From: Pseudomonadota bacterium
GTDB lineage: Bacteria > UBA10199 > 2-02-FULL-44-16 > JBDRGF01
DNA length: 64,000 bases
NCBI GenBank assembly: GCA_043818055.1
Contig: JBDRGF010000159.1
Location: 17,623 to 81,622, forward strand
Direction of reading: 5' to 3'
Positions 3,696 through 55,828 of this stretch are shown here, piece by piece (position 1 is the first letter of the stretch; each line of letters begins with the position of its first letter). The notes under the pieces were generated by a model that made no database searches, was not told where the DNA came from, and saw nothing but the letters and a program-made list of their open reading frames with translations. The position numbers and the translations under genes were made by a program.

Positions 3696-4565
3696 CTATG
3701 GTCTGTTTGCCGAAAACACGATATCCTTCAAATGCCGCAGTGTCATTAAAGAATATTTTTTGTCGCTTACGGTATAAAATTGACAGACAGCCCGCTTTAT
3801 GAGCCTAATATAGAATATGAAATTTTCCATTTTCGATCCATAAGATTTCATAAAAAGTGTTTCAGCTTTGAGAATATTTAAATATCTTTTTTCATTCATG
3901 AATTTATCATAGTTTCTTACGGAAAGCTCGTGTTCAACAATCGAATCCATTACATAAATCTTATTGCCTATTTTGTTGATAGAATAAAACATCCATCTAT
4001 CTAAGCAGTCCATCCAAAACACTTCATTAAATCCACCGATTTTTTGCAAAACGGGAACTCTGACAGTGCTTCCAGAACCGATGGCACAGGCGTTTTTAAA
4101 CATACAAATACCTCTGTGTCGCCTGTCTATCGCCCTGACTATCCCGCCAAACCAAATCCTTGTCGGAGAAAATATATTATTCTTAAAGCACATCTTTGGA
4201 ACAACGGCGGCAATCTCGTCATTATCACCAACCTTGGAAAGATTATCCATCAGGCTGACAATAAAATCATCCGGCAATGATGAATCTTGATCCAAAAGAA
4301 GCAACCAGTCGCAGAAAGCATTAACCGCTTTACTCAACGCGTAATTGTACGCAACTGCCAAGCCTTTGTTGGTGTTGTCATGAACATATTCGCATTTAAA
4401 TACTGTGAAATCCAGACTTTGTATTGATGGACTATTATCGTAGACAATAAAGTTTATTTTCTCAAATGATTGAGAATCTCTCATATAATTCTTCAACAGG
4501 GAAATATATGTTTTACTATTCTCAATTACACAATTATAAACCACTATAATGACCGTTAAACTCAT
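3696..4565 (-). CDS. Family 2 glycosyltransferase (rhamnosyltransferase-like)
   Basis: TVIIVVYNC...YDNSPS N-terminal GT2 signature and LLLLDQDS DxD region. 4-nt overlap with the upstream gene. Confidence 0.7.
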   Translation of the reverse strand: MSLTVIIVVYNCVIENSKTYISLLKNYMRDSQSFEKINFIVYDNSPSIQSLDFTVFKCEYVHDNTNKGLAVAYNYALSKAVNAFCDWLLLLDQDSSLPDDFIVSLMDNLSKVGDNDEIAAVVPKMCFKNNIFSPTRIWFGGIVRAIDRRHRGICMFKNACAIGSGSTVRVPVLQKIGGFNEVFWMDCLDRWMFYSINKIGNKIYVMDSIVEHELSVRNYDKFMNEKRYLNILKAETLFMKSYGSKMENFIFYIRLIKRAVCQFYTVSDKKYSLMTLRHLKDIVFSANRP

Positions 4566-6313
4566 GGTCTACCCCGACACAATTTTTCTCTTAGCACAAA
4601 CATCTTATTTTGGATTCGTCTAAACAAGCTTCTACATTTACGCGGAATGCAACCTAACAATGCAATAATAAAATATGAGTTGCAGTACAATAATATATTT
4701 ATACTTACTGCGTGTCGAAAATCACTTATTCCATACACAGCATTAGCTATAGAACTCTCCAACTTACAAAAACGATCAAAATCTTTTTTGTTAAGCAAAA
4801 CATTTAGACTTGATGCAATTCTTATAATTAACAATCTCATCGAATGGGTTTTTAAAGCCGATGTCACATCAGGAATGTTCTTCAACGCTACAAGAAAATT
4901 ATATATAGCCCTGATCACCATCACATTAAGATCAATTTTATCGCGCCATTCCCACTCAGCATCAATAAAAATGCATTTATTATCAAATATAAAACAGTTA
5001 CTCCACAAACAATCCAAATACTTTCCATCAAGTAGTTCCACTCCCATCTCCTTCGTGCATAACGATTTAAGATAGTAAAGCCACAATTTGCATGGAGCAA
5101 ATATATCCTCTATAGAAACATTTATTTCTCTAACCCTCTTCAATATCTGCGCATGCAACGTCGGCTCGTTCAGCCATTCATCTTTACATGTATGAAGTGA
5201 CATCTTTCCCAACGTCACTACTTCAAGACCACATTGAGGTACTTTATTTACAAATATTCTTTTATTTTCGCATTCAAGAATTCTGGTCACTGTTTGAAAT
5301 TCGCTAATTCGATTTTCACTATAAGCCAAACCAAGTTGGTCAAATTTAATCGATGATATGTTATGCCTGCCAGCTATAACCAAGAATGAATTAGAAAAGA
5401 AAGGGAGTTGGTTGTTTTTATCTAGTTCTAAGAGAGCGATATTTTCATCGAATAATGGTTTTCTACGGCCTGAGTAATCTCGCGGCCTATAAAGACCCGC
5501 AAGCTCACCCGCTTTTATTTTATTGAAAGCCCTCTCCGCTAAAACACATGATGGTATTTTATAATCTGGGTACGGAAAATAAAATTCGACATTTTCATAG
5601 TATTTTTTAAGTCTTGATCGCAACTCATAATAACCAAACGTCCGTCCTCTGTTTTTAAAACGGGGATACCCTTCTATGCCATCGAACATAACATCCGTAT
5701 GGTCTTCGCTACTCGATGAAAAGTATTTCAATCCAAACTGGTTTTCAATTGCCAGAACGACTACTCCATCTGGTGTTAAAATATCTTTAAAATACTCAAG
5801 AATGTAATCATAAGGATTATCTTTATTCACAAAAGCATTTGAATACTCAAAAACGCCGACACAAAAAATTATATCGAAAGGCTCTTTAAAATCCACCTCG
5901 TGAAATGGGGCACAAAGCACCGAAACATTGTTCATATCCTTTGTGCGCAAACGCGCCAAACGTGCTCTACTCTCGCTACCTTCAACGGCAACAACATCAT
6001 CGAATGTTTCTGCAAGAAAGCGAGTGATTGCTCCGCAACCGCAACCAACCTCCAACACTTTTTTTGTTCTATCATACTCAAAACCACGAAGAAGTTGCGT
6101 TCGTTTTCTCGACAAATGATATTCGCTTGACCAATCCCTAATGTAGCGTTCTAGTTCGTACGACTTTGAGCTCAAATCAGTCGCTTTCCTAAATACCTTT
6201 TCGAGGTAATTCTCAAAGAAACGACCCTCTGAGTAATTTATCGTATTTCCGTTAGCAAGAACCCAAACTGACCCATCGTTAAGCTCTATTTTGTTATTAA
6301 CTCTTTTTTTCAT
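4562..6313 (-). CDS. Class I SAM-dependent methyltransferase fused to a ~350-aa C-terminal domain of unknown function
   Basis: VLEVGCGCGAITRFLAETFDDVVAVEGSE SAM-binding motif I in the N-terminal third. I do not recognise the C-terminal part. Confidence 0.65.
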   Translation of the reverse strand: MKKRVNNKIELNDGSVWVLANGNTINYSEGRFFENYLEKVFRKATDLSSKSYELERYIRDWSSEYHLSRKRTQLLRGFEYDRTKKVLEVGCGCGAITRFLAETFDDVVAVEGSESRARLARLRTKDMNNVSVLCAPFHEVDFKEPFDIIFCVGVFEYSNAFVNKDNPYDYILEYFKDILTPDGVVVLAIENQFGLKYFSSSSEDHTDVMFDGIEGYPRFKNRGRTFGYYELRSRLKKYYENVEFYFPYPDYKIPSCVLAERAFNKIKAGELAGLYRPRDYSGRRKPLFDENIALLELDKNNQLPFFSNSFLVIAGRHNISSIKFDQLGLAYSENRISEFQTVTRILECENKRIFVNKVPQCGLEVVTLGKMSLHTCKDEWLNEPTLHAQILKRVREINVSIEDIFAPCKLWLYYLKSLCTKEMGVELLDGKYLDCLWSNCFIFDNKCIFIDAEWEWRDKIDLNVMVIRAIYNFLVALKNIPDVTSALKTHSMRLLIIRIASSLNVLLNKKDFDRFCKLESSIANAVYGISDFRHAVSINILLYCNSYFIIALLGCIPRKCRSLFRRIQNKMFVLREKLCRGRP

Positions 6314-41938: not shown

Positions 41939-42755
41939 TTACTTGACATAATATCCACCGGTTTTTTTGCTGCCACGGTATTCGATTTTACCTTGCTTTT
42001 TTAATTTTGCCGCCCATCTTTCGACTGTCTTTGGCGACATGCTTATTTTTTCAGCAATTTCTGAAATTCTTTTACCTGGATTGACTCTAATAAATTCCAG
42101 AAAAACATTTATTCCCTCATTTATTCCCTCATTTATTCCCTCATTTATTCCCTCACTTATTCCCTCACTTATTCCCTCATTTATTCCCTCATTTATTCCC
42201 TCACCTCTTTTTCGTAAGTGAAAAACAATGACAAATGCCCCTGCTGTCTCACTAAACTCTGGTGCAGGGTTACCATTTTCAAGAGAATAGTTATAAATCT
42301 TTTGAAAGCCTCCTCCCCAGCCTTCAATCAAACCTATCTTATGAAAAACATCTACTATCGCCTTGTTCCGGGGTATGGAACGACCTTCAGTCAGTAAATT
42401 TTCTATGTTGATTTCCTTAGGTAACAATCCGGGGCTCCATATTTCCAGCCTGTCATCAAAAATTCTGATCTGTATATTACCTGCGTCTGCATAATCACGG
42501 TGTGCAACTGCATTAATAATAGCCTCTCTTATGGCCGGTAAAGAATAGTCCCGGATCTGTATGCAGCTTTACCTTGTTGATCAAATCCTCAATCGCTCCT
42601 TTTCCAACAACCATGTTTAAAGGTCCACCGCTATCATCCAAACCTACGATCACTTTTCCACCACTCTTGTTTGCAAAGGCACCAAGGGTGACTATTACAT
42701 CTCTCCACTCCGCAAGAGAGGATTTGAGTTCCAATGTTTCGGATTCTTTATACAT
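41939..42755 (-). pseudogene. AlbA_2 (Schlafen-like DNA-binding) + wHTH regulator, disrupted; contains (NEGI)n coding repeat
   Basis: Two adjacent ORFs, 42513..42755 (AlbA_2 N-domain, ETLELKSSLAEW...FANKSGGKVIVG) and 41939..42427 (wHTH C-terminus), are separated by a frame break. 12-nt tandem repeat at about 42100-42215. Confidence 0.5.
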
Positions 42756-43479
42756 GGCTATACACCCTCATGATCTCTTGTGCATACTCAACTGCCTGTT
42801 CAGCTTCTTTTCTGGTGATTTCATGTTCGTCATCCATCCAATTTTCAGACTTCTGAAATAACTTATAAAGATATTTAAATTTTGAGGCTATATCTTTACC
42901 ATAATATTTCTCGGTCAGCGGGAGAAGCACATCTATCTTGCTTGAATATCCCTCGTTCTTCATGGCAAGTGAAGCTTGTAAGGCATGTTTTGATGCAACA
43001 AAGCAATAATCGATCACACCATTTGTAAAGCCATCCTTCAGCAATTCCTGAGCCAACTTAACTTTCCGGGATTCAAAATCTCTAGAGTCTTTAAAAAAGC
43101 CTGCATATTTAGATGAAGGAGACTCAAAACTTAACGACATATCAATATCTCCAAAGATAAGCTTTCCTTCACGCTTAGCAGCTGTATAAACAGGCAACTT
43201 TTCCTTTACGAAATCCTTCTCGCTTGCAACTAAAACAGAAAAAGCCTCTTCCTTTACAAGTTCATCTCTGATGCGATTTGCCTTTTTATTCACATTATCA
43301 ACAACCATAAGCAGATCGACATCCGAATCTTCCCTGGCACATAATTTTGCCCATGACCCATAGAGAATGGCCGCTTTAATACTTTTACTTTCAGTTAGCT
43401 TTTGCCTGATTGTTTCAATATGCGTGTCTATTGGCTGAATCATATTAATTAATGGGTTGGGGTATTTTTCTATGAGCAT
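42748..43479 (-). CDS. Fused minimal nucleotidyltransferase (MNT) - HEPN domain protein
   Basis: N-terminal ILYGSWAKLCAREDSDVDLLMVV NTase motif and a C-terminal HEPN-like helical domain. Confidence 0.65.
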   Translation of the reverse strand: MLIEKYPNPLINMIQPIDTHIETIRQKLTESKSIKAAILYGSWAKLCAREDSDVDLLMVVDNVNKKANRIRDELVKEEAFSVLVASEKDFVKEKLPVYTAAKREGKLIFGDIDMSLSFESPSSKYAGFFKDSRDFESRKVKLAQELLKDGFTNGVIDYCFVASKHALQASLAMKNEGYSSKIDVLLPLTEKYYGKDIASKFKYLYKLFQKSENWMDDEHEITRKEAEQAVEYAQEIMRVYSHV

Positions 43480-43503
43480 TTTTTAATAGATAGTGGTCAG
43501 TCT

Positions 43504-43572
43504 GAAACTAGAAGCCAGAAGCAAGAAGCTAGAAATCAGAGGCCAGAAAATAGAAGTTAGAAACTAGAGGTC
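43504..43572. repeat. Heptanucleotide tandem array block A, about 9 units (AAGYYAG/AGAAGYY)
   Basis: gaaactag aagccag aagcaag aagctag aaatcag aggccag aaaatag aagttag aaactag, period 7. Confidence 0.8.
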
Positions 43573-43771
43573 ATAAATCCTTGATTCCTGCAATTTTTAG
43601 CAGGGCTTTTTGCAAACCGACTTTCAAAGGCCTATTGCCATGTATCGGCAAACTTATTCGTTCTCTCTATCCATCCTTCATAAATATATGATGGCTGCCG
43701 TGTATCCTCTTTAACATCCAGCCGTTATTTTCCAACAATTCTACCATTTCTTTACCTGATAGGGCTTTCAT
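43571..43771 (-). pseudogene. hicA: hicA toxin gene interrupted by an in-frame TAG
   Basis: MKALSGKEMVELLENNGWMLKRIHGSHHIFMKDG*RERISLPIHGNRPLKVGLQKALLKIAGIKDL. Amber codon at 43667..43669. ATGA overlap with the hicB stop. Confidence 0.6.
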
Positions 43772-43971
43772 ACAGCAATTTCCAGCACTTCTGCTTTATC
43801 ATGATTCTCTCCCTCATCAACATCGACAGACAAACAACCTTCCACTGCCTCGTATATATTACTTAGCAACTCTTCCCAAGTGTCGCCTTGCGTGATACAG
43901 CCCGGAACAGCCGGCACTTCCGCCCAATATCCACCCTCCTCCGCTTTGTGAACGACTACCTTTATCTTCAT
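43768..43971 (-). CDS. hicB: HicB-family antitoxin (UPF0150-like)
   Basis: MKIKVVVHKAEEGGYWAEVPAVPGCITQGDTWEELLSNIYEAVEGCL, the canonical HicB N-domain. Confidence 0.7.
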   Translation of the reverse strand: MKIKVVVHKAEEGGYWAEVPAVPGCITQGDTWEELLSNIYEAVEGCLSVDVDEGENHDKAEVLEIAV

Positions 43972-44009
43972 TATCTCACCCTCCCCCTGTTTATCATTTT
44001 TATTTTGTG

Positions 44010-44135
44010 GTTTTCATCAAAATTTTGAATACACCTTCATGATCTCTTGTGCATATTTGACCGATTGTTCAACTTCGTTTCTTTATATTTCATCTTCCGC
44101 ATCCAGCCAATTCTCAGACTTCTGATATAACTCAT
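44010..44135 (-). pseudogene. Degraded duplicate of the 3' end of the MNT-HEPN gene
   Basis: About 75% nucleotide identity to 42757..42870. Encodes ...YAQEIMKVYSKF* compared with ...YAQEIMRVYSHV*. Confidence 0.35.
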
Positions 44136-44142
44136 ATAGATT

Positions 44143-44205
44143 CAGAGGCTTGAAGTCAGAAGCTAGAAGTCAGAAGTCAGAAGCTAGAGGTCAGAGGGGG
44201 GAAGT
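44143..44205. repeat. Heptanucleotide tandem array block B (AGAAGYY)
   Basis: agaggct tgaagtc agaagct agaagtc agaagtc agaagct agaggtc agagggg. Confidence 0.8.
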
Positions 44206-44630
44206 TGCTATCGTTCCCTTTTTGTAATTGACTTTGACTTCAAATCGTCTGAAGAAGTCCAATCCTATCAGCACCTTTATTCCCCAAGATTGGTCGAAGT
44301 GCGAGACATAGAATTGCATCAAACTTATGCCATCTGCCATCCCTGGTTGTGACAAAAACCGGAAGAAATATGTAGCGCGCGCTCGTATCAAAAGTGGTGA
44401 TGTTCGGCATGAGCTCTCCATCCGCCGGGGAATTTGCTTTCGCCGGTGTACTTAAAAGTGCAATCCTTATCAGGTGCCGGAGGACTAAAAACATCCTGAT
44501 CGTTCTTTGAGTGTCGTTCAACAATACCGGAGATGAGCCGGCCGGATTCATCTTCATCACAATCAACAATCATAAGCCACTCATCCGGAAAGGCCTTCTT
44601 CATCTCTTCCCAACTCATTTTCTGTCCCAT
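44191..44630 (-). pseudogene. Frameshifted small gene; the C-terminal part resembles a retropepsin-like (clan AA) aspartic protease
   Basis: Three overlapping ORFs in three frames. One ends ...WGIKVLIGLDFFRRFEVKVNYKKGTI, which is like the C-terminal motif of bacterial retropepsin-like proteases. Confidence 0.3.
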
Positions 44631-44667
44631 GATTTTCTCCCAATGGAAATTTATATTGCGATATACA

Positions 44668-44782
44668 AAAGCAAGAAGTCAGAGGCAAGAAGTCAGAAGT
44701 TAGAAGTTAGAGGTCAGAAACAAGAAGTCAGAAGTCAGAAGTCAGAAGCAAGAAGCTAGGAGTCAGGGGCCGGAAGTCAACC
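44668..44782. repeat. Heptanucleotide tandem array block C, about 16 units (AGYYAGA)
   Basis: agcaaga agtcaga ggcaaga agtcaga agttaga agttaga ggtcaga aacaaga agtcaga agtcaga agtcaga agcaaga agctagg agtcagg. Confidence 0.8.
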
Positions 44783-44833
44783 GTAGGTTTGCCAGTTGTT
44801 TAAGAGTCCCCATAACATTTTGCCGATTTCATC

Positions 44834-45151
44834 TTAGTTTTCATAACATCCTTGGTAAGTTGCCTCATCGATATATTTGCACTTGCTTGCGAAATCAAGC
44901 CATACCTTAACGTCTTCGCATGAACCGATAGAATCCAACAGATGCCTTTTAAATACATTTTCAAATCGCCTTTTGGCCCAACATTCTGCAATATTGGCTG
45001 GAATTGATCTCGACGATCTTCTCATTTGATCTATCAAACTATAGCGTTCTTCCTTTGGAAATTTACCGGTCAATCTGAATATACCCATCGCAGATTCGAA
45101 AGATTTCGTAAAAACGACCAAATCTTTACATGTTTTTATCTTCTCTTGCAT
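44834..45151 (-). CDS. Four-helix-bundle protein (23S rRNA intervening-sequence protein family)
   Basis: MQEKIKTCKDLVVFTKSFESAMGIFRLTGKFPKEERYSLIDQMRRSSRSIPANIAEC, the typical family signature. Confidence 0.8.
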   Translation of the reverse strand: MQEKIKTCKDLVVFTKSFESAMGIFRLTGKFPKEERYSLIDQMRRSSRSIPANIAECWAKRRFENVFKRHLLDSIGSCEDVKVWLDFASKCKYIDEATYQGCYEN

Positions 45152-45200
45152 CTGGCTTCTTGCTTCTGACTTCTTGCTTCTTGCCTCTGGCTTCTGCGAC
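45152..45200. repeat. Heptanucleotide tandem array block D (inverted orientation) plus adjacent duplicated 5'-end fragment of the MNT-HEPN gene (to about 45250)
   Basis: gcttcttgcttctgacttcttgcttcttgcctctggcttctg is the reverse complement of AGAAGYY units. 45195-45250 is about 85% identical to 43390-43450. Confidence 0.7.
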
Positions 45201-45284
45201 TTTCAGTTAGCTTTTATCTAATTGTTTCAATATGCGTATCTATTGGCTGTCAGTTGAAAAAAATAAATTACAGATGTTGGTTTA

Positions 45285-46626
45285 TCAGTCCTTTTTTATC
45301 ACTTTCCAGTGACCACCCTTATCGGGGCCAACACGTTCTATAAATCCTTTTAATTTTAACTTCTTCAGGTTTTCCTCAATTTTCCTCTGTGAAATTCCAA
45401 CAAACGTTGCCAGTTCATTTGCAGAAACATGAGGTTTTTCCCTAATTGTTTTGAGAATTTTAGCCTGGTTTCCCGTTACCTTTTCTCCGACCTTTTCTCC
45501 GACCTTTTCTCCGACCTTTTTAGACCTATTATAAACAGTGACCAAAAACCCCCCACCCTGTACATCAAACTTTGGAGAAGGAAGTTTTCTATCGGCAAAT
45601 GAATCAAATACGCGTTTTATTCCGGAACCATATTTTTCCATTATCTTCAGCTCTTTAAACATTGTTGCAATCTGCTTGTTTCTTATCTCCGATTTATAAT
45701 TCCCTTTCACCAGCTGTTCAACAGTAAGCGGTCCCATCAATTTTCCTGGATTGTAAAATTCCATTCGATCACTAAGACGAACTTGAGTAGTCGCGATGAA
45801 CGACCATGTTTATTACCAGCTCTCTAAGTGCATCCAAAGGATAATCCCAAACCTCATCTCTTTGTGGCTTTCCAGTTATAACATATGCCTTATTGATGTG
45901 CTTGGTTATAAAATGCATCACTTCATCAACTTCTGAAAGCACATCCGTTCTAACCGTTGTACCATCTTTGATAAGTGTCTCCGTCTGAAATCTGCCCAGT
46001 TCAATCGTGCTTAATATCGACCACTCTTTCATAAAAAGTAGAAAACACGCCTTCGATATTTTTTTATCACGCAACAACTCATACTTTTTTAGAAACGTAA
46101 TAGGGTCATCCGTAATTGGATATTCTCTGTTTCTATTTGCTCTTTCAATGAACAGCACAACCTTATCCAGAGAAATATCATTTATTGTATGATTGCTGTC
46201 CTCATAATAATCCCAGCTAGAATTAAATGTTTTGAGATGCATATTGACGACTTCATTTATATTCAGAAGATGATTAGAATTTTTGACCCGTTTGTAATAT
46301 CTGCCTCTGAACGCCACCGGTTTTATCGGATATTCAATCGTATTTATAACAGCTATCAATTTTCCACCGCGTTTTTTAACATCGACGTCAGGAATGATTG
46401 ATGGGTTGGTTTTGTTCTTGATTTCATTTATCCAATTCTGAACAGTTTCTTTGCCTATTTTAACACCTTCCACTTTGCCTTTATCATTCACGCCGATAAC
46501 AACACTCCCGCCTTTCGCATTAGCAAAAGCCACAAGCGTCTCTATTACCTCATTTCCAAAATTGAGTTTAAATTCCTGTTTGTCTGATTCTTTGTATTTC
46601 ATTCTACACTGTCCACGGTAGCCCAA
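45285..46626 (-). pseudogene. AlbA_2 + HATPase_c_4-like + wHTH 'divergent AAA / Schlafen-like' regulator, split by a frameshift; contains (KVGE)n 12-nt coding repeat
   Basis: ORFs 45772..46626 (AlbA_2, FANAKGGSVVIGV) and 45285..45764 (wHTH C-terminus) lie in different frames. ccgaccttttct x3-4 at about 45480-45530. Confidence 0.55.
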
Positions 46627-55572: not shown

Positions 55573-55695
55573 AATTTCCTCCTTGCCGCATTGAAGTGCT
55601 ATCTGCAGAGAAAGTCAAGAGAATATATCGCCAAAAGCTCTATTTTCAACGTTTTGCGAGCAATAAAAAAATGCCCAATTAACAATACCAAAATT

Positions 55696-55828
55696 CAATA
55701 TCCAATATCCAATATCCAATATCCAATATCCAATATCCAATATCCAATATCCAATATCCAATATCCAATATCCAATATTCAGTTAACAATATCCAATATC
55801 CAATATTCAATACACAATACTCAATTAA
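55696..55828. repeat. (CAATATC)n heptanucleotide microsatellite, about 12 near-perfect plus about 7 degenerate units, in a divergent promoter region
   Basis: caatatccaatatccaatatcc... seen directly in the sequence. Between the minus gene start at 55572 and the plus gene start at 55866. Confidence 0.9.

Follow-up and report, generated by a model that had tools for sequence, protein, structure and literature searches.

Two disrupted Schlafen-ATPase-HTH genes with in-frame 12-nucleotide linker arrays, a probable inheritance from their family

Here we present an analysis of two disrupted genes, designated copy 1 and copy 2, in a 64,000-nt stretch of DNA (the window) from contig JBDRGF010000159.1 of a Pseudomonadota bacterium (assembly GCA_043818055.1, positions 17,623 to 81,622 of the forward strand). 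Each gene combines a Schlafen-type SLFN_AlbA_2 domain, an ATPase domain of the HATPase_c_4 family (PF13749) and a C-terminal winged helix-turn-helix (wHTH) domain, and each carries an in-frame tandem array with a 12-nt unit in the linker between ATPase and wHTH. In a recent preprint, the pair formed by SLFN_AlbA_2 and PF13749 is defined as the "Schlatpase" supradomain, found in 60,692 of 103,533 prokaryotic Schlafen proteins, with a helix-turn-helix (HTH) in more than 90% of the C-terminal tails (bioRxiv 10.64898/2026.05.29.728809). Comparison with relatives from many phyla makes it probable that the two genes are Schlatpase-HTH pseudogenes whose linker microsatellite was inherited and not invented in this genome. 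What the window shows is one inactivated, local example of a trait that runs through the family, and the family-level pattern is the interesting part. Although the Schlatpase-HTH family is already known, we did not find its repeat hallmark, the nucleotide conservation of the repeat or its link to the wHTH described, and literature searches aimed at the linker repeats returned nothing relevant.

The two genes and their arrays

The minus strand carries every gene in the 39.9-47.7 kb section of the window, as judged from the list of open reading frames (ORFs). Copy 2 begins with an ATG at 46602, and its upstream piece (45772..46602, minus strand) encodes SLFN_AlbA_2 and the N-terminal part of the GHKL ATPase up to a premature stop after HRDYSSSS. 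The downstream piece (45285..45782, minus strand) encodes the rest of HATPase_c_4, a (KVGE) linker and a wHTH of the type ISQRKIEENL...GPDKGGHW. The gene is open for 276 codons, ends with ...NMVVHRDYSSSS and continues in another frame as (V)RLSDRMEFYNPG. At the frame break (45765..45795, minus strand), the spacing between HRDY and I/MEF is 22 nt, compared with 42 nt in 15 aligned homologues; therefore about 20 nt have been deleted, with loss of the GHKL beta-strand DSIIKIFDD and a shift of frame. Copy 2 keeps the family-invariant residues E5, E10, K12, E261 and N265 as well as the YGSG motif, and because all other family-invariant residues are retained its loss looks recent.

Copy 1 is more extensively damaged. 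Its N-terminal remnant (42513..42755, minus strand) encodes the first ~69 residues of SLFN_AlbA_2, with an ATG that overlaps the stop codon of the upstream gene (ATGTATAA), a fusion of nucleotidyltransferase and HEPN domains (MNT-HEPN). The sequence then jumps, in a different frame, to DYSLPAIREAIINAVAHRDY, from which the C-terminal part (41939..42550, minus strand) runs through the C-half of HATPase_c_4, an (EGIN/EGIS)x8 linker and a wHTH of the type NPGK..ERW..KIEYRGSKKTGGY. This jump means that approximately 185 codons (~555 nt) are missing.

Pfam searches found SLFN_AlbA_2, HATPase_c_4 and an HTH_24/MarR-type wHTH in both conceptual proteins, which is the composition that had been suggested from the DNA before any database search. 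SLFN_AlbA_2 (PF04326) is nearly complete in copy 2 (2.9e-20, profile positions 1-117 of 118) and a remnant in copy 1 (3.5e-7, positions 1-68 of 118 only). The corresponding values are 3.4e-21 (copy 2, which lacks one beta-strand) and 1e-24 (copy 1) for HATPase_c_4, and 4.7e-8 (copy 2) and 3.1e-4 (copy 1) for HTH_24. A catalytic-type E-x4-E-x-K motif is present as E5/E10/K12 in copy 2 and as E4..E9.K11 in copy 1, and its three residues are invariant across alignments of 19 and 78 sequences that include copy 2. Identity between the two copies is 29% in the last 200 residues and 41% in the first 69, which makes them distant, old paralogues from two old subfamilies and not recent duplicates. In the PDB, the only sequence relatives were 3LMM and mammalian Schlafens.

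Using Tandem Repeats Finder (TRF), we recovered both arrays at period 12. The copy 1 array (42106..42203, minus strand; 98 nt) has 8.2 copies with 97% matches, and its consensus CATTTATTCCCT is a rotation of ttccctcattta, the repeat first noted from the sequence alone; on the coding strand the unit is GAGGGAATAAAT, assigned to class III, and two units carry an AAT to AGT change (N to S). The copy 2 array (45478..45520, minus strand; 43 nt) has 3.6 nucleotide-perfect copies (100% matches) of ACCTTTTCTCCG, a rotation of the previously noted ccgaccttttct, with the coding-strand unit AAGGTCGGAGAA of class I. Dimers of the unit occur six times for copy 1 and twice for copy 2, compared with none in 100 dinucleotide-preserving shuffles of the window. 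Read on the minus strand, both arrays are in frame and encode GEGINEGINEGISEGISEGINEGINEGINEGIN and KKVGEKVGEKVGEKV, that is, eight EGIN/EGIS tetrapeptides in copy 1 and 3.6 of KVGE in copy 2. In alignments, both follow the last strand of HATPase_c_4 and precede helix 1 of the wHTH. The original prediction had described about eight and three to four in-frame 12-nt repeats in two genes, both at the same spot just before a C-terminal wHTH, and the Pfam domains together with the position of the arrays between ATPase and wHTH confirm this observation.

Neither copy has an intact single ORF, given the ~20-nt deletion in copy 2 and the ~185-codon deletion with frame change in copy 1. Judged from the assembled DNA, both copies are therefore pseudogenes in this assembly, where the suspected frame breaks stand as genuine lesions, and any tuning by repeat length is moot in the window. 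That copy 1 might be a natural short form, as its best matches of 160-300 amino acids (aa) could suggest, was rejected: its two parts lie in different frames, and those matches are themselves fragments or broken genes. In relatives of copy 1 (class III, with EGIN/EGLN units), a disrupted Schlafen domain combined with a C-terminal part that is still open is a recurrent finding. Locus L101 (762-2106) has a nonsense codon and a frameshift, L103 (361-1465) has an internal deletion, and in protein P0219 an in-frame deletion joins residue 23 to the C-half of the GHKL domain.

The array across the family

The relatives examined were encoded at 80 loci taken from GTDB species genomes of many phyla (Bacteroidota, Desulfobacterota, Elusimicrobiota, Nitrospirota, Ignavibacteriota, Calditrichota, Planctomycetota, Gammaproteobacteria, Clostridia and others). 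An array of period 12, 24 or 36 lies inside the gene at all 80, mostly ~155-200 nt before the stop codon, and 49 of 83 arrays are nucleotide-perfect. Among 83 family genes, the median copy number is 4.5 (interquartile range 4.15-5.2), and a single gene has at least 8.2 copies. At the protein level, clear tandem peptide repeats, all of period 4, occupy the same linker in 52 of the 120 homologues closest to copy 2, which align with most of the query at 49-59% identity. The peptide units vary among homologues and include TTQK, KTPQ, KVGE, KVTE, KVVE, RVPD, GSQR and TGEV. Neighbouring paralogues that each have their own unit are common (L017, L031, L040, L054, L064 and L070), so the arrangement in the window is typical. 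A search of representatives clustered at 50% identity returned 47,509 matches at E ≤ 1e-3, defining a wider family in which the closer members have repeats of period 4 (or 8 or 12) and a few have 7-residue units, while a more distant branch with another HTH (LNERQ..ITN.EY) is without repeats.

The units themselves are related. That of copy 2, AAGGTCGGAGAA, recurs identically in L012, a locus from a Bacteroidales metagenome-assembled genome (MAG), and with one base changed in L006, L032 and L040; that of copy 1, GAGGGAATAAAT, is unchanged in L101-L104, which come from unrelated samples and include the isolate genome of Galbibacter mesophilus. Among distinct units, 98 in-frame pairs share at least 9 of 12 positions, compared with 4.4 expected from composition-matched shuffles. 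A single in-frame register, NAN-AAN-RNC-NNN, fits all units, and in this common register the two window units agree at 7/12 positions by manual count. The simplest reading of these sequence relationships is one ancestral array at this linker.

Comparison of close relatives revealed that the linker is polymorphic in length. In seven of ten clusters of proteins at least 90% identical, the linker has internal indels of 4 residues or multiples of 4, and in five of those seven such steps are the only internal indels. In an AlphaFold2 model of the intact homologue P0055, built from a 78-sequence alignment, the domains are predicted with a confidence score (pLDDT) of ~90, and linker residues 368-387 fall below 50 and are without secondary structure, followed by three helices and a wing. 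T, K, V, G, E and D predominate in the units, some of which also contain P. Where successive units of an array differ, the change is nonsynonymous in 90 cases and synonymous in 17, with 24% synonymous expected, which indicates that the tetrapeptide is weakly constrained. Together these features fit a linker that, according to the model, would be a disordered tether changing length in 4-residue steps.

It had been proposed that the repeats of the two paralogues arose independently in this genome and that changes in repeat length could tune or phase-vary a pair of functional defence regulators. The copies do have different unit sequences, linker copy number is polymorphic in the family, the neighbours in the window are of toxin-antitoxin or defence type, and some relatives lie in restriction-modification (R-M) or defence islands. 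Against independent origins stand the arrays at the same site in 80/80 relatives, the single register for all units and the unchanged occurrence of both window 12-mers in unrelated genomes. As for switching, 12 is divisible by three, so gain or loss of units by slippage keeps the frame, on/off phase variation is excluded and only linker length can change; a repeat that alters the reading frame or promoter spacing was not what we found, since all indels among close relatives were multiples of 4 residues. Moreover, both genes are broken by deletions unrelated to the repeats, and PADLOC made no system-level assignment, giving only partial matches to HTH models and to fused domains of pAgo/Aga proteins (pAgo, prokaryotic Argonaute). 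This account is accordingly very improbable. What survives of it is the variation in repeat length, which is real in the family without being an on/off switch, and length tuning in living members is plausible.

The conservation of the units at the nucleotide level exceeds what their peptides would lead one to expect. We compared codons between genes of different species that share a tetrapeptide unit and whose flanks are synonymously saturated (40.4% codon identity at identical residues). Unit codons were identical at 294/324 positions (90.7%, versus the 40.4% of the flanks), and all four codons were identical in 53 of 81 pairs, versus 2.2 expected, with about 35 effectively independent genes behind this result as the pairs are phylogenetically non-independent. 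After collapsing close relatives, AAAACCACCCAG is used in 5/7 KTTQ genes, GATAAGGTCACC in 4/4 DKVT genes and GAGAAAACTGTG in 3/3 EKTV genes. Sequence directly abutting the arrays has ~30% identity, which is random, and the wHTH codons are saturated; recent transfer of a longer stretch is rejected on both counts as the origin of the identical units. Under neutral slippage a unit should change as fast as ordinary synonymous sites, so that this conservation suggests a constraint on the nucleic acid, be it for one of the roles considered below or for another.

Unit type also tracks the adjacent wHTH. At matched N-domain identity of 45-50%, the C-domains of pairs with the same unit are 53.8% identical, versus 33.9% for pairs with different units (standard deviation 8.6), and alignment by class pairs each unit class with its own recognition-helix motif. 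Furthermore, the Sphingobacteriia loci L016, L018 and L026 have units GAGAAAACGTCG and GGGAAAACGTCG that are identical at 10-11 of 12 positions to the class I units GAAAAGGTCGGA and GAAAATGTCGGA and are read in a different frame, giving T-S-E/G-K instead of E-K/N-V-G, so that the DNA is kept and the peptide changed.

These observations raise the possibility that the array is a nucleic-acid-level element, in which selection would act on the 12-mer at the level of DNA or RNA and fit it to the neighbouring wHTH. In one putative version, it would be an iteron-like cognate site, with ~4-5 direct 12-bp repeats serving the wHTHs of an ATP-driven tetramer; in another, equally putative, it would be a codon-repeat sensor coupling translation of the gene to the tRNA pool attacked by the nuclease. 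The codon identities, the random sequence beside the arrays, the tracking of the wHTH and the class I unit read in another frame in one clade are all in keeping with such an element, as is the lack of enrichment of synonymous differences inside arrays. The modal 4-5 copies would also match the tetramerisation of the GHKL module described for RzAgo, a Schlafen-ATPase-Argonaute protein, in the preprint. However, simple physical linkage also predicts the coupling of unit and wHTH, the frame-shifted usage is a single evolutionary event, and the more distant members have no repeats or 7-residue units. Additional copies of the units are also lacking in the 4-kb flanks and elsewhere in the window, paralogue arrays aside: extra exact 12-mers in the flanks of 65 loci were only the arrays of neighbouring paralogues, and outside its arrays the window has only chance-level singletons with one mismatch. 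On the whole we regard a nucleic-acid-level role as unlikely. If true, it would mean a self-embedded cis element travelling with the DNA-binding module in thousands of Schlafen-ATPase-HTH genes, and it would explain the synonymous-site conservation, the prediction of wHTH subtype by unit type and the clustering at 4-5 copies.

Two narrower candidates did not hold. The idea of an operator, with extra unit copies near the gene, was rejected on the same flank searches. Mini-ORFs, out-of-frame stops and slippery sites inside the units were dropped as a common feature after inspection by eye, given that class II units are open in all frames.

The edge of the array also marks a boundary in gene history. 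Mosaic pairs in clusters 2, 3, 6, 7 and 8 retain 94-98% identity in the Schlatpase body and 39-70% in the wHTH after the linker. For the one pair whose breakpoint was examined at the DNA level, L099/L100, the sequences share ~95% identity from a point before the start codon as far as nt ~1120, where the array has its 5' edge, and past that edge they are unrelated, downstream genes included. At L022, a complete gene is followed by an orphan cassette consisting of the GHKL end, an array and a wHTH, and window copy 1, P0219 and L103 are likewise C-terminal cassettes with short N-terminal remnants. In these few cases, array and wHTH behave, as far as sequence comparison can tell, as a module replaceable relative to the conserved Schlatpase body. 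One may go further and suppose that the arrays are mainly recombination junctions at which new C-terminal wHTH modules swap in, leaving displaced orphan modules, and the mosaic pairs, the L099/L100 break and the cassettes just listed are what this supposition would predict. However, unit type changes along with the wHTH, so the crossovers fall 5' of the array, which is thus not itself the homology that the partners share; in addition, co-resident paralogues mostly have different units, and the evidence at DNA level is that one breakpoint. A primary role as recombination junctions is therefore rather doubtful.

Neighbourhood and decay of the locus

The two copies sit in a decaying islet of toxin-antitoxin or defence type between dxs and a sugar-nucleotidyltransferase gene (Pfam), the latter adjoining copy 2. 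Between the copies and immediately upstream of copy 1 stands an intact MNT-HEPN gene of 243 aa (42748..43479, minus strand; Pfam Polbeta/NTP_transf_2 and HEPN). The class III relative L103 likewise has an NTP_transf_2 and HEPN pair as a neighbour, on the downstream side of the gene. Further upstream are HicB (43971..43768, minus strand; Pfam HicB_lk_antitox), which is intact, and HicA (43771..43571, minus strand; Pfam HicA_toxin), where an in-frame TAG at 43669-43667 (codon 35) means that the toxin of the HicBA pair is inactivated. A second MNT-HEPN copy (44029..45249, minus strand) is split, leaving one piece from its 5' part (45249..45199) and one from its 3' part (44141..44029), which in local alignments are identical to the intact gene at 47/51 and 92/113 positions, respectively. 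About 515 nt of the gene are missing, and the ~1.06 kb between the pieces holds heptamer arrays, a 23S_rRNA_IVP four-helix-bundle gene (45151..44834, minus strand; Pfam 1e-26), an 80-aa ORF (44630..44388) and a short retropepsin-like remnant, so that the missing stretch looks as if it had been replaced by a heptamer-bounded cassette.

This general decay bears on the alternative that the genes are intact in the organism and that metagenome assembly produced the frame breaks and perhaps the copy numbers as well. The window matches one MAG contig, and assemblers can be misled by repeats and by paralogous genes. Of public proteins, only P0001 (276 aa) is identical to one of the pieces, and as the truncated copy 2 product of that same contig it gives no independent confirmation of the copy 2 lesion. 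Apart from it, the closest proteins are 55-56% identical to copy 2 and 57-60% to copy 1, and no match above 58% emerged when metagenome contigs were scanned with Dxs as the anchor. On the other hand, the lesions are unlike base-calling errors, being deletions of ~20 and ~555 nt and not homopolymer errors; the arrays, at 43 and 98 nt, are shorter than typical reads; and the neighbours have decayed independently, as seen from the HicA nonsense codon and the split MNT-HEPN copy. Truncated or broken relatives of copy 1 were seen in four other assemblies too, one of them an isolate genome. An assembly artefact is highly unlikely on this evidence.

The small genes of the islet are parted by degenerate heptamer arrays, which on the minus strand lie at 45196-45144, 44766-44674, 44195-44142 and 43577-43504 and consist of (AGAAGNN)~7 and (CTTCTNN)~8-13 (TRF period 7). 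The first two are mutually inverted and flank the 23S_rRNA_IVP gene on both sides, and in a predicted RNA fold they pair as a long terminal stem around its ORF (minimum free energy -165 kcal/mol, z = -5.65 versus shuffles). A gene bounded by a stem in this way recalls rRNA intervening sequences. The top-scoring tandem repeat of the window is also a heptamer array, 18.7 copies of CAATATC at 55683-55812 with 87% matches. Degenerate period-7 arrays of many sequences are also found around Schlatpase-HTH genes of other phyla, with 81 arrays of at least three copies at 33 of 80 loci (L022, L042, L061, L062, L070, L071 and 27 others). Often they touch the gene at both ends, as at L062, where arrays at 3958-4004 and 5319-5409 surround a gene at 4001-5314, and the GTCAGAG/GTCGGAA arrays of L022 resemble those of the window. 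The nearest published description of heptamers concerns the intergenic TAACTGA repeats of Beggiatoaceae, Cyanobacteria and Bacteroidetes (PMC4679880).

Elsewhere, the neighbours of the copy 2 subfamily are a mix of polysaccharide-synthesis genes (often), toxin-antitoxin genes and R-M genes, and no conserved gene partner was found among its upstream and downstream neighbours; NCBIfam gave no family-level match. Some relatives do lie in conflict loci, such as L100 by Cap4/nSTAND, L102 by Eco57I/GmrSD and L104 by HNH/MazG. At L099 (1181-5552, a metagenome contig), a type I R-M operon contains the Schlatpase-HTH gene, which follows hsdM, with a 4-nt overlap at the end of the latter, and precedes hsdS. 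The layout is reminiscent of the EcoprrI locus, which harbours the anticodon nuclease PrrC.

Interpretation and comparison with known systems

The reading that we favour, two pseudogenes with an inherited linker microsatellite, can be put as a sequence of steps. The microsatellite would encode a disordered tetrapeptide-repeat tether joining the ATPase to the DNA-binding domain; replication slippage would keep the units identical and vary the tether in 4-residue steps among close relatives; selection in working genes would hold the tether near 4-5 units; and array and wHTH would be exchanged as one module against the Schlatpase body. The window arrays would then be relics of inactivated genes, and the eight units of copy 1 would fit drift after loss of function. 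Several points weigh against this account. Neither the 12-mer conservation (90.7% versus 40.4%) nor the random identity right beside the arrays is explained by a plain flexible linker kept by slippage. Slippage itself, and stabilising selection on length, are inferred and not observed. No second strain of the source organism was found in the collections searched.

As to function, the precedents point away from the proposed role as regulators. According to the preprint, ATP drives the tetramerisation of RzAgo and its SLFN domain cleaves tRNA, with a flexible linker between the ATPase and the sensor domain (bioRxiv 10.64898/2026.05.29.728809), and CbCash, a CRISPR-associated Schlafen protein, cleaves tRNA with a site formed by E17-D22-K24 (2026 Nature Communications, PMC13462974). 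The precedent of an ATP-driven tRNA nuclease, together with the matching E..E.K motif present here, makes the proteins more likely effectors with a DNA-binding module. By analogy with RzAgo, we infer that the intact proteins may be ATP-switched nucleases with a tethered DNA-binding module, the nuclease and ATPase functions of the window family being putative on the same ground.

Recent work has established that prokaryotic immunity involves Schlafen nucleases, and HTH-bearing Schlafen-ATPases are by far the commonest form. In the subfamilies examined here, a near-perfect, length-polymorphic 12-nt microsatellite lies exactly at the ATPase-wHTH junction, and distant members are without it. The junction array, its excess conservation, its tracking of the wHTH, the module boundary and the 4-5 copies together offer a handle on how a DNA-binding module is coupled to a nuclease/ATPase body. 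For annotation, such 12-nt arrays are a family signature and not local oddities, and the genes that carry them are often found decayed.

The closest relatives among described systems are the Schlatpase proteins themselves. The window genes share with RzAgo the two N-terminal domains and the catalytic-type E-x4-E-x-K motif, and they have the C-terminal HTH reported for most Schlatpase tails. The predicted flexible linker that follows the ATPase in the window family is at the position of the AlphaFold3-predicted ATPase-to-pAgo linker of RzAgo. They differ in carrying a wHTH instead of the Argonaute core and in being disrupted, and the preprint mentions no tetrapeptide or 12-nt repeat linker, as far as its passages with the term "repeat" (three occurrences) show (bioRxiv 10.64898/2026.05.29.728809).

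The nearest mechanistic analogue is the TAEL repeat of the type IC HsdS subunits of EcoR124I/II, in which two versus three 12-bp repeats change the recognition sequence from GAAN6RTCG to GAAN7RTCG (PMC3874165). Both are 12-bp in-frame tetrapeptide repeats in a spacer beside a DNA-recognition module, with a copy number that differs between close relatives. However, TAEL lies in an alpha-helical coiled coil and sets a rigid distance, whereas the linker here is T/K/V/G/E-rich and predicted to be disordered, and a rigid alpha-helical spacer is not what the AlphaFold2 model gives. There are also 2-3 copies there and 4-5 here, and here the unit varies between lineages.

Simple-sequence contingency loci, which change by slipped-strand mispairing, share with the family examined here a nucleotide-perfect repeat inside a conflict-related gene, polymorphic in copy number among the family's near-identical alleles. 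The difference is that the unit here is a multiple of three, so that the outcome is a graded in-frame change of length and not an on/off switch.

Finally, the Rhs/CdiA polymorphic toxins have a conserved N-terminal body, a sharp junction motif, variable C-terminal modules and displaced orphan cassettes. The Schlatpase-HTH genes resemble them, in the few cases seen, in the conserved body, the sharp junction, the variable C-terminal modules and the orphan cassettes downstream. Here, however, the variable module is a DNA-binding wHTH and not a toxin with its immunity gene, and the place of a conserved peptide motif at the junction is taken by a microsatellite, which moves together with the module.

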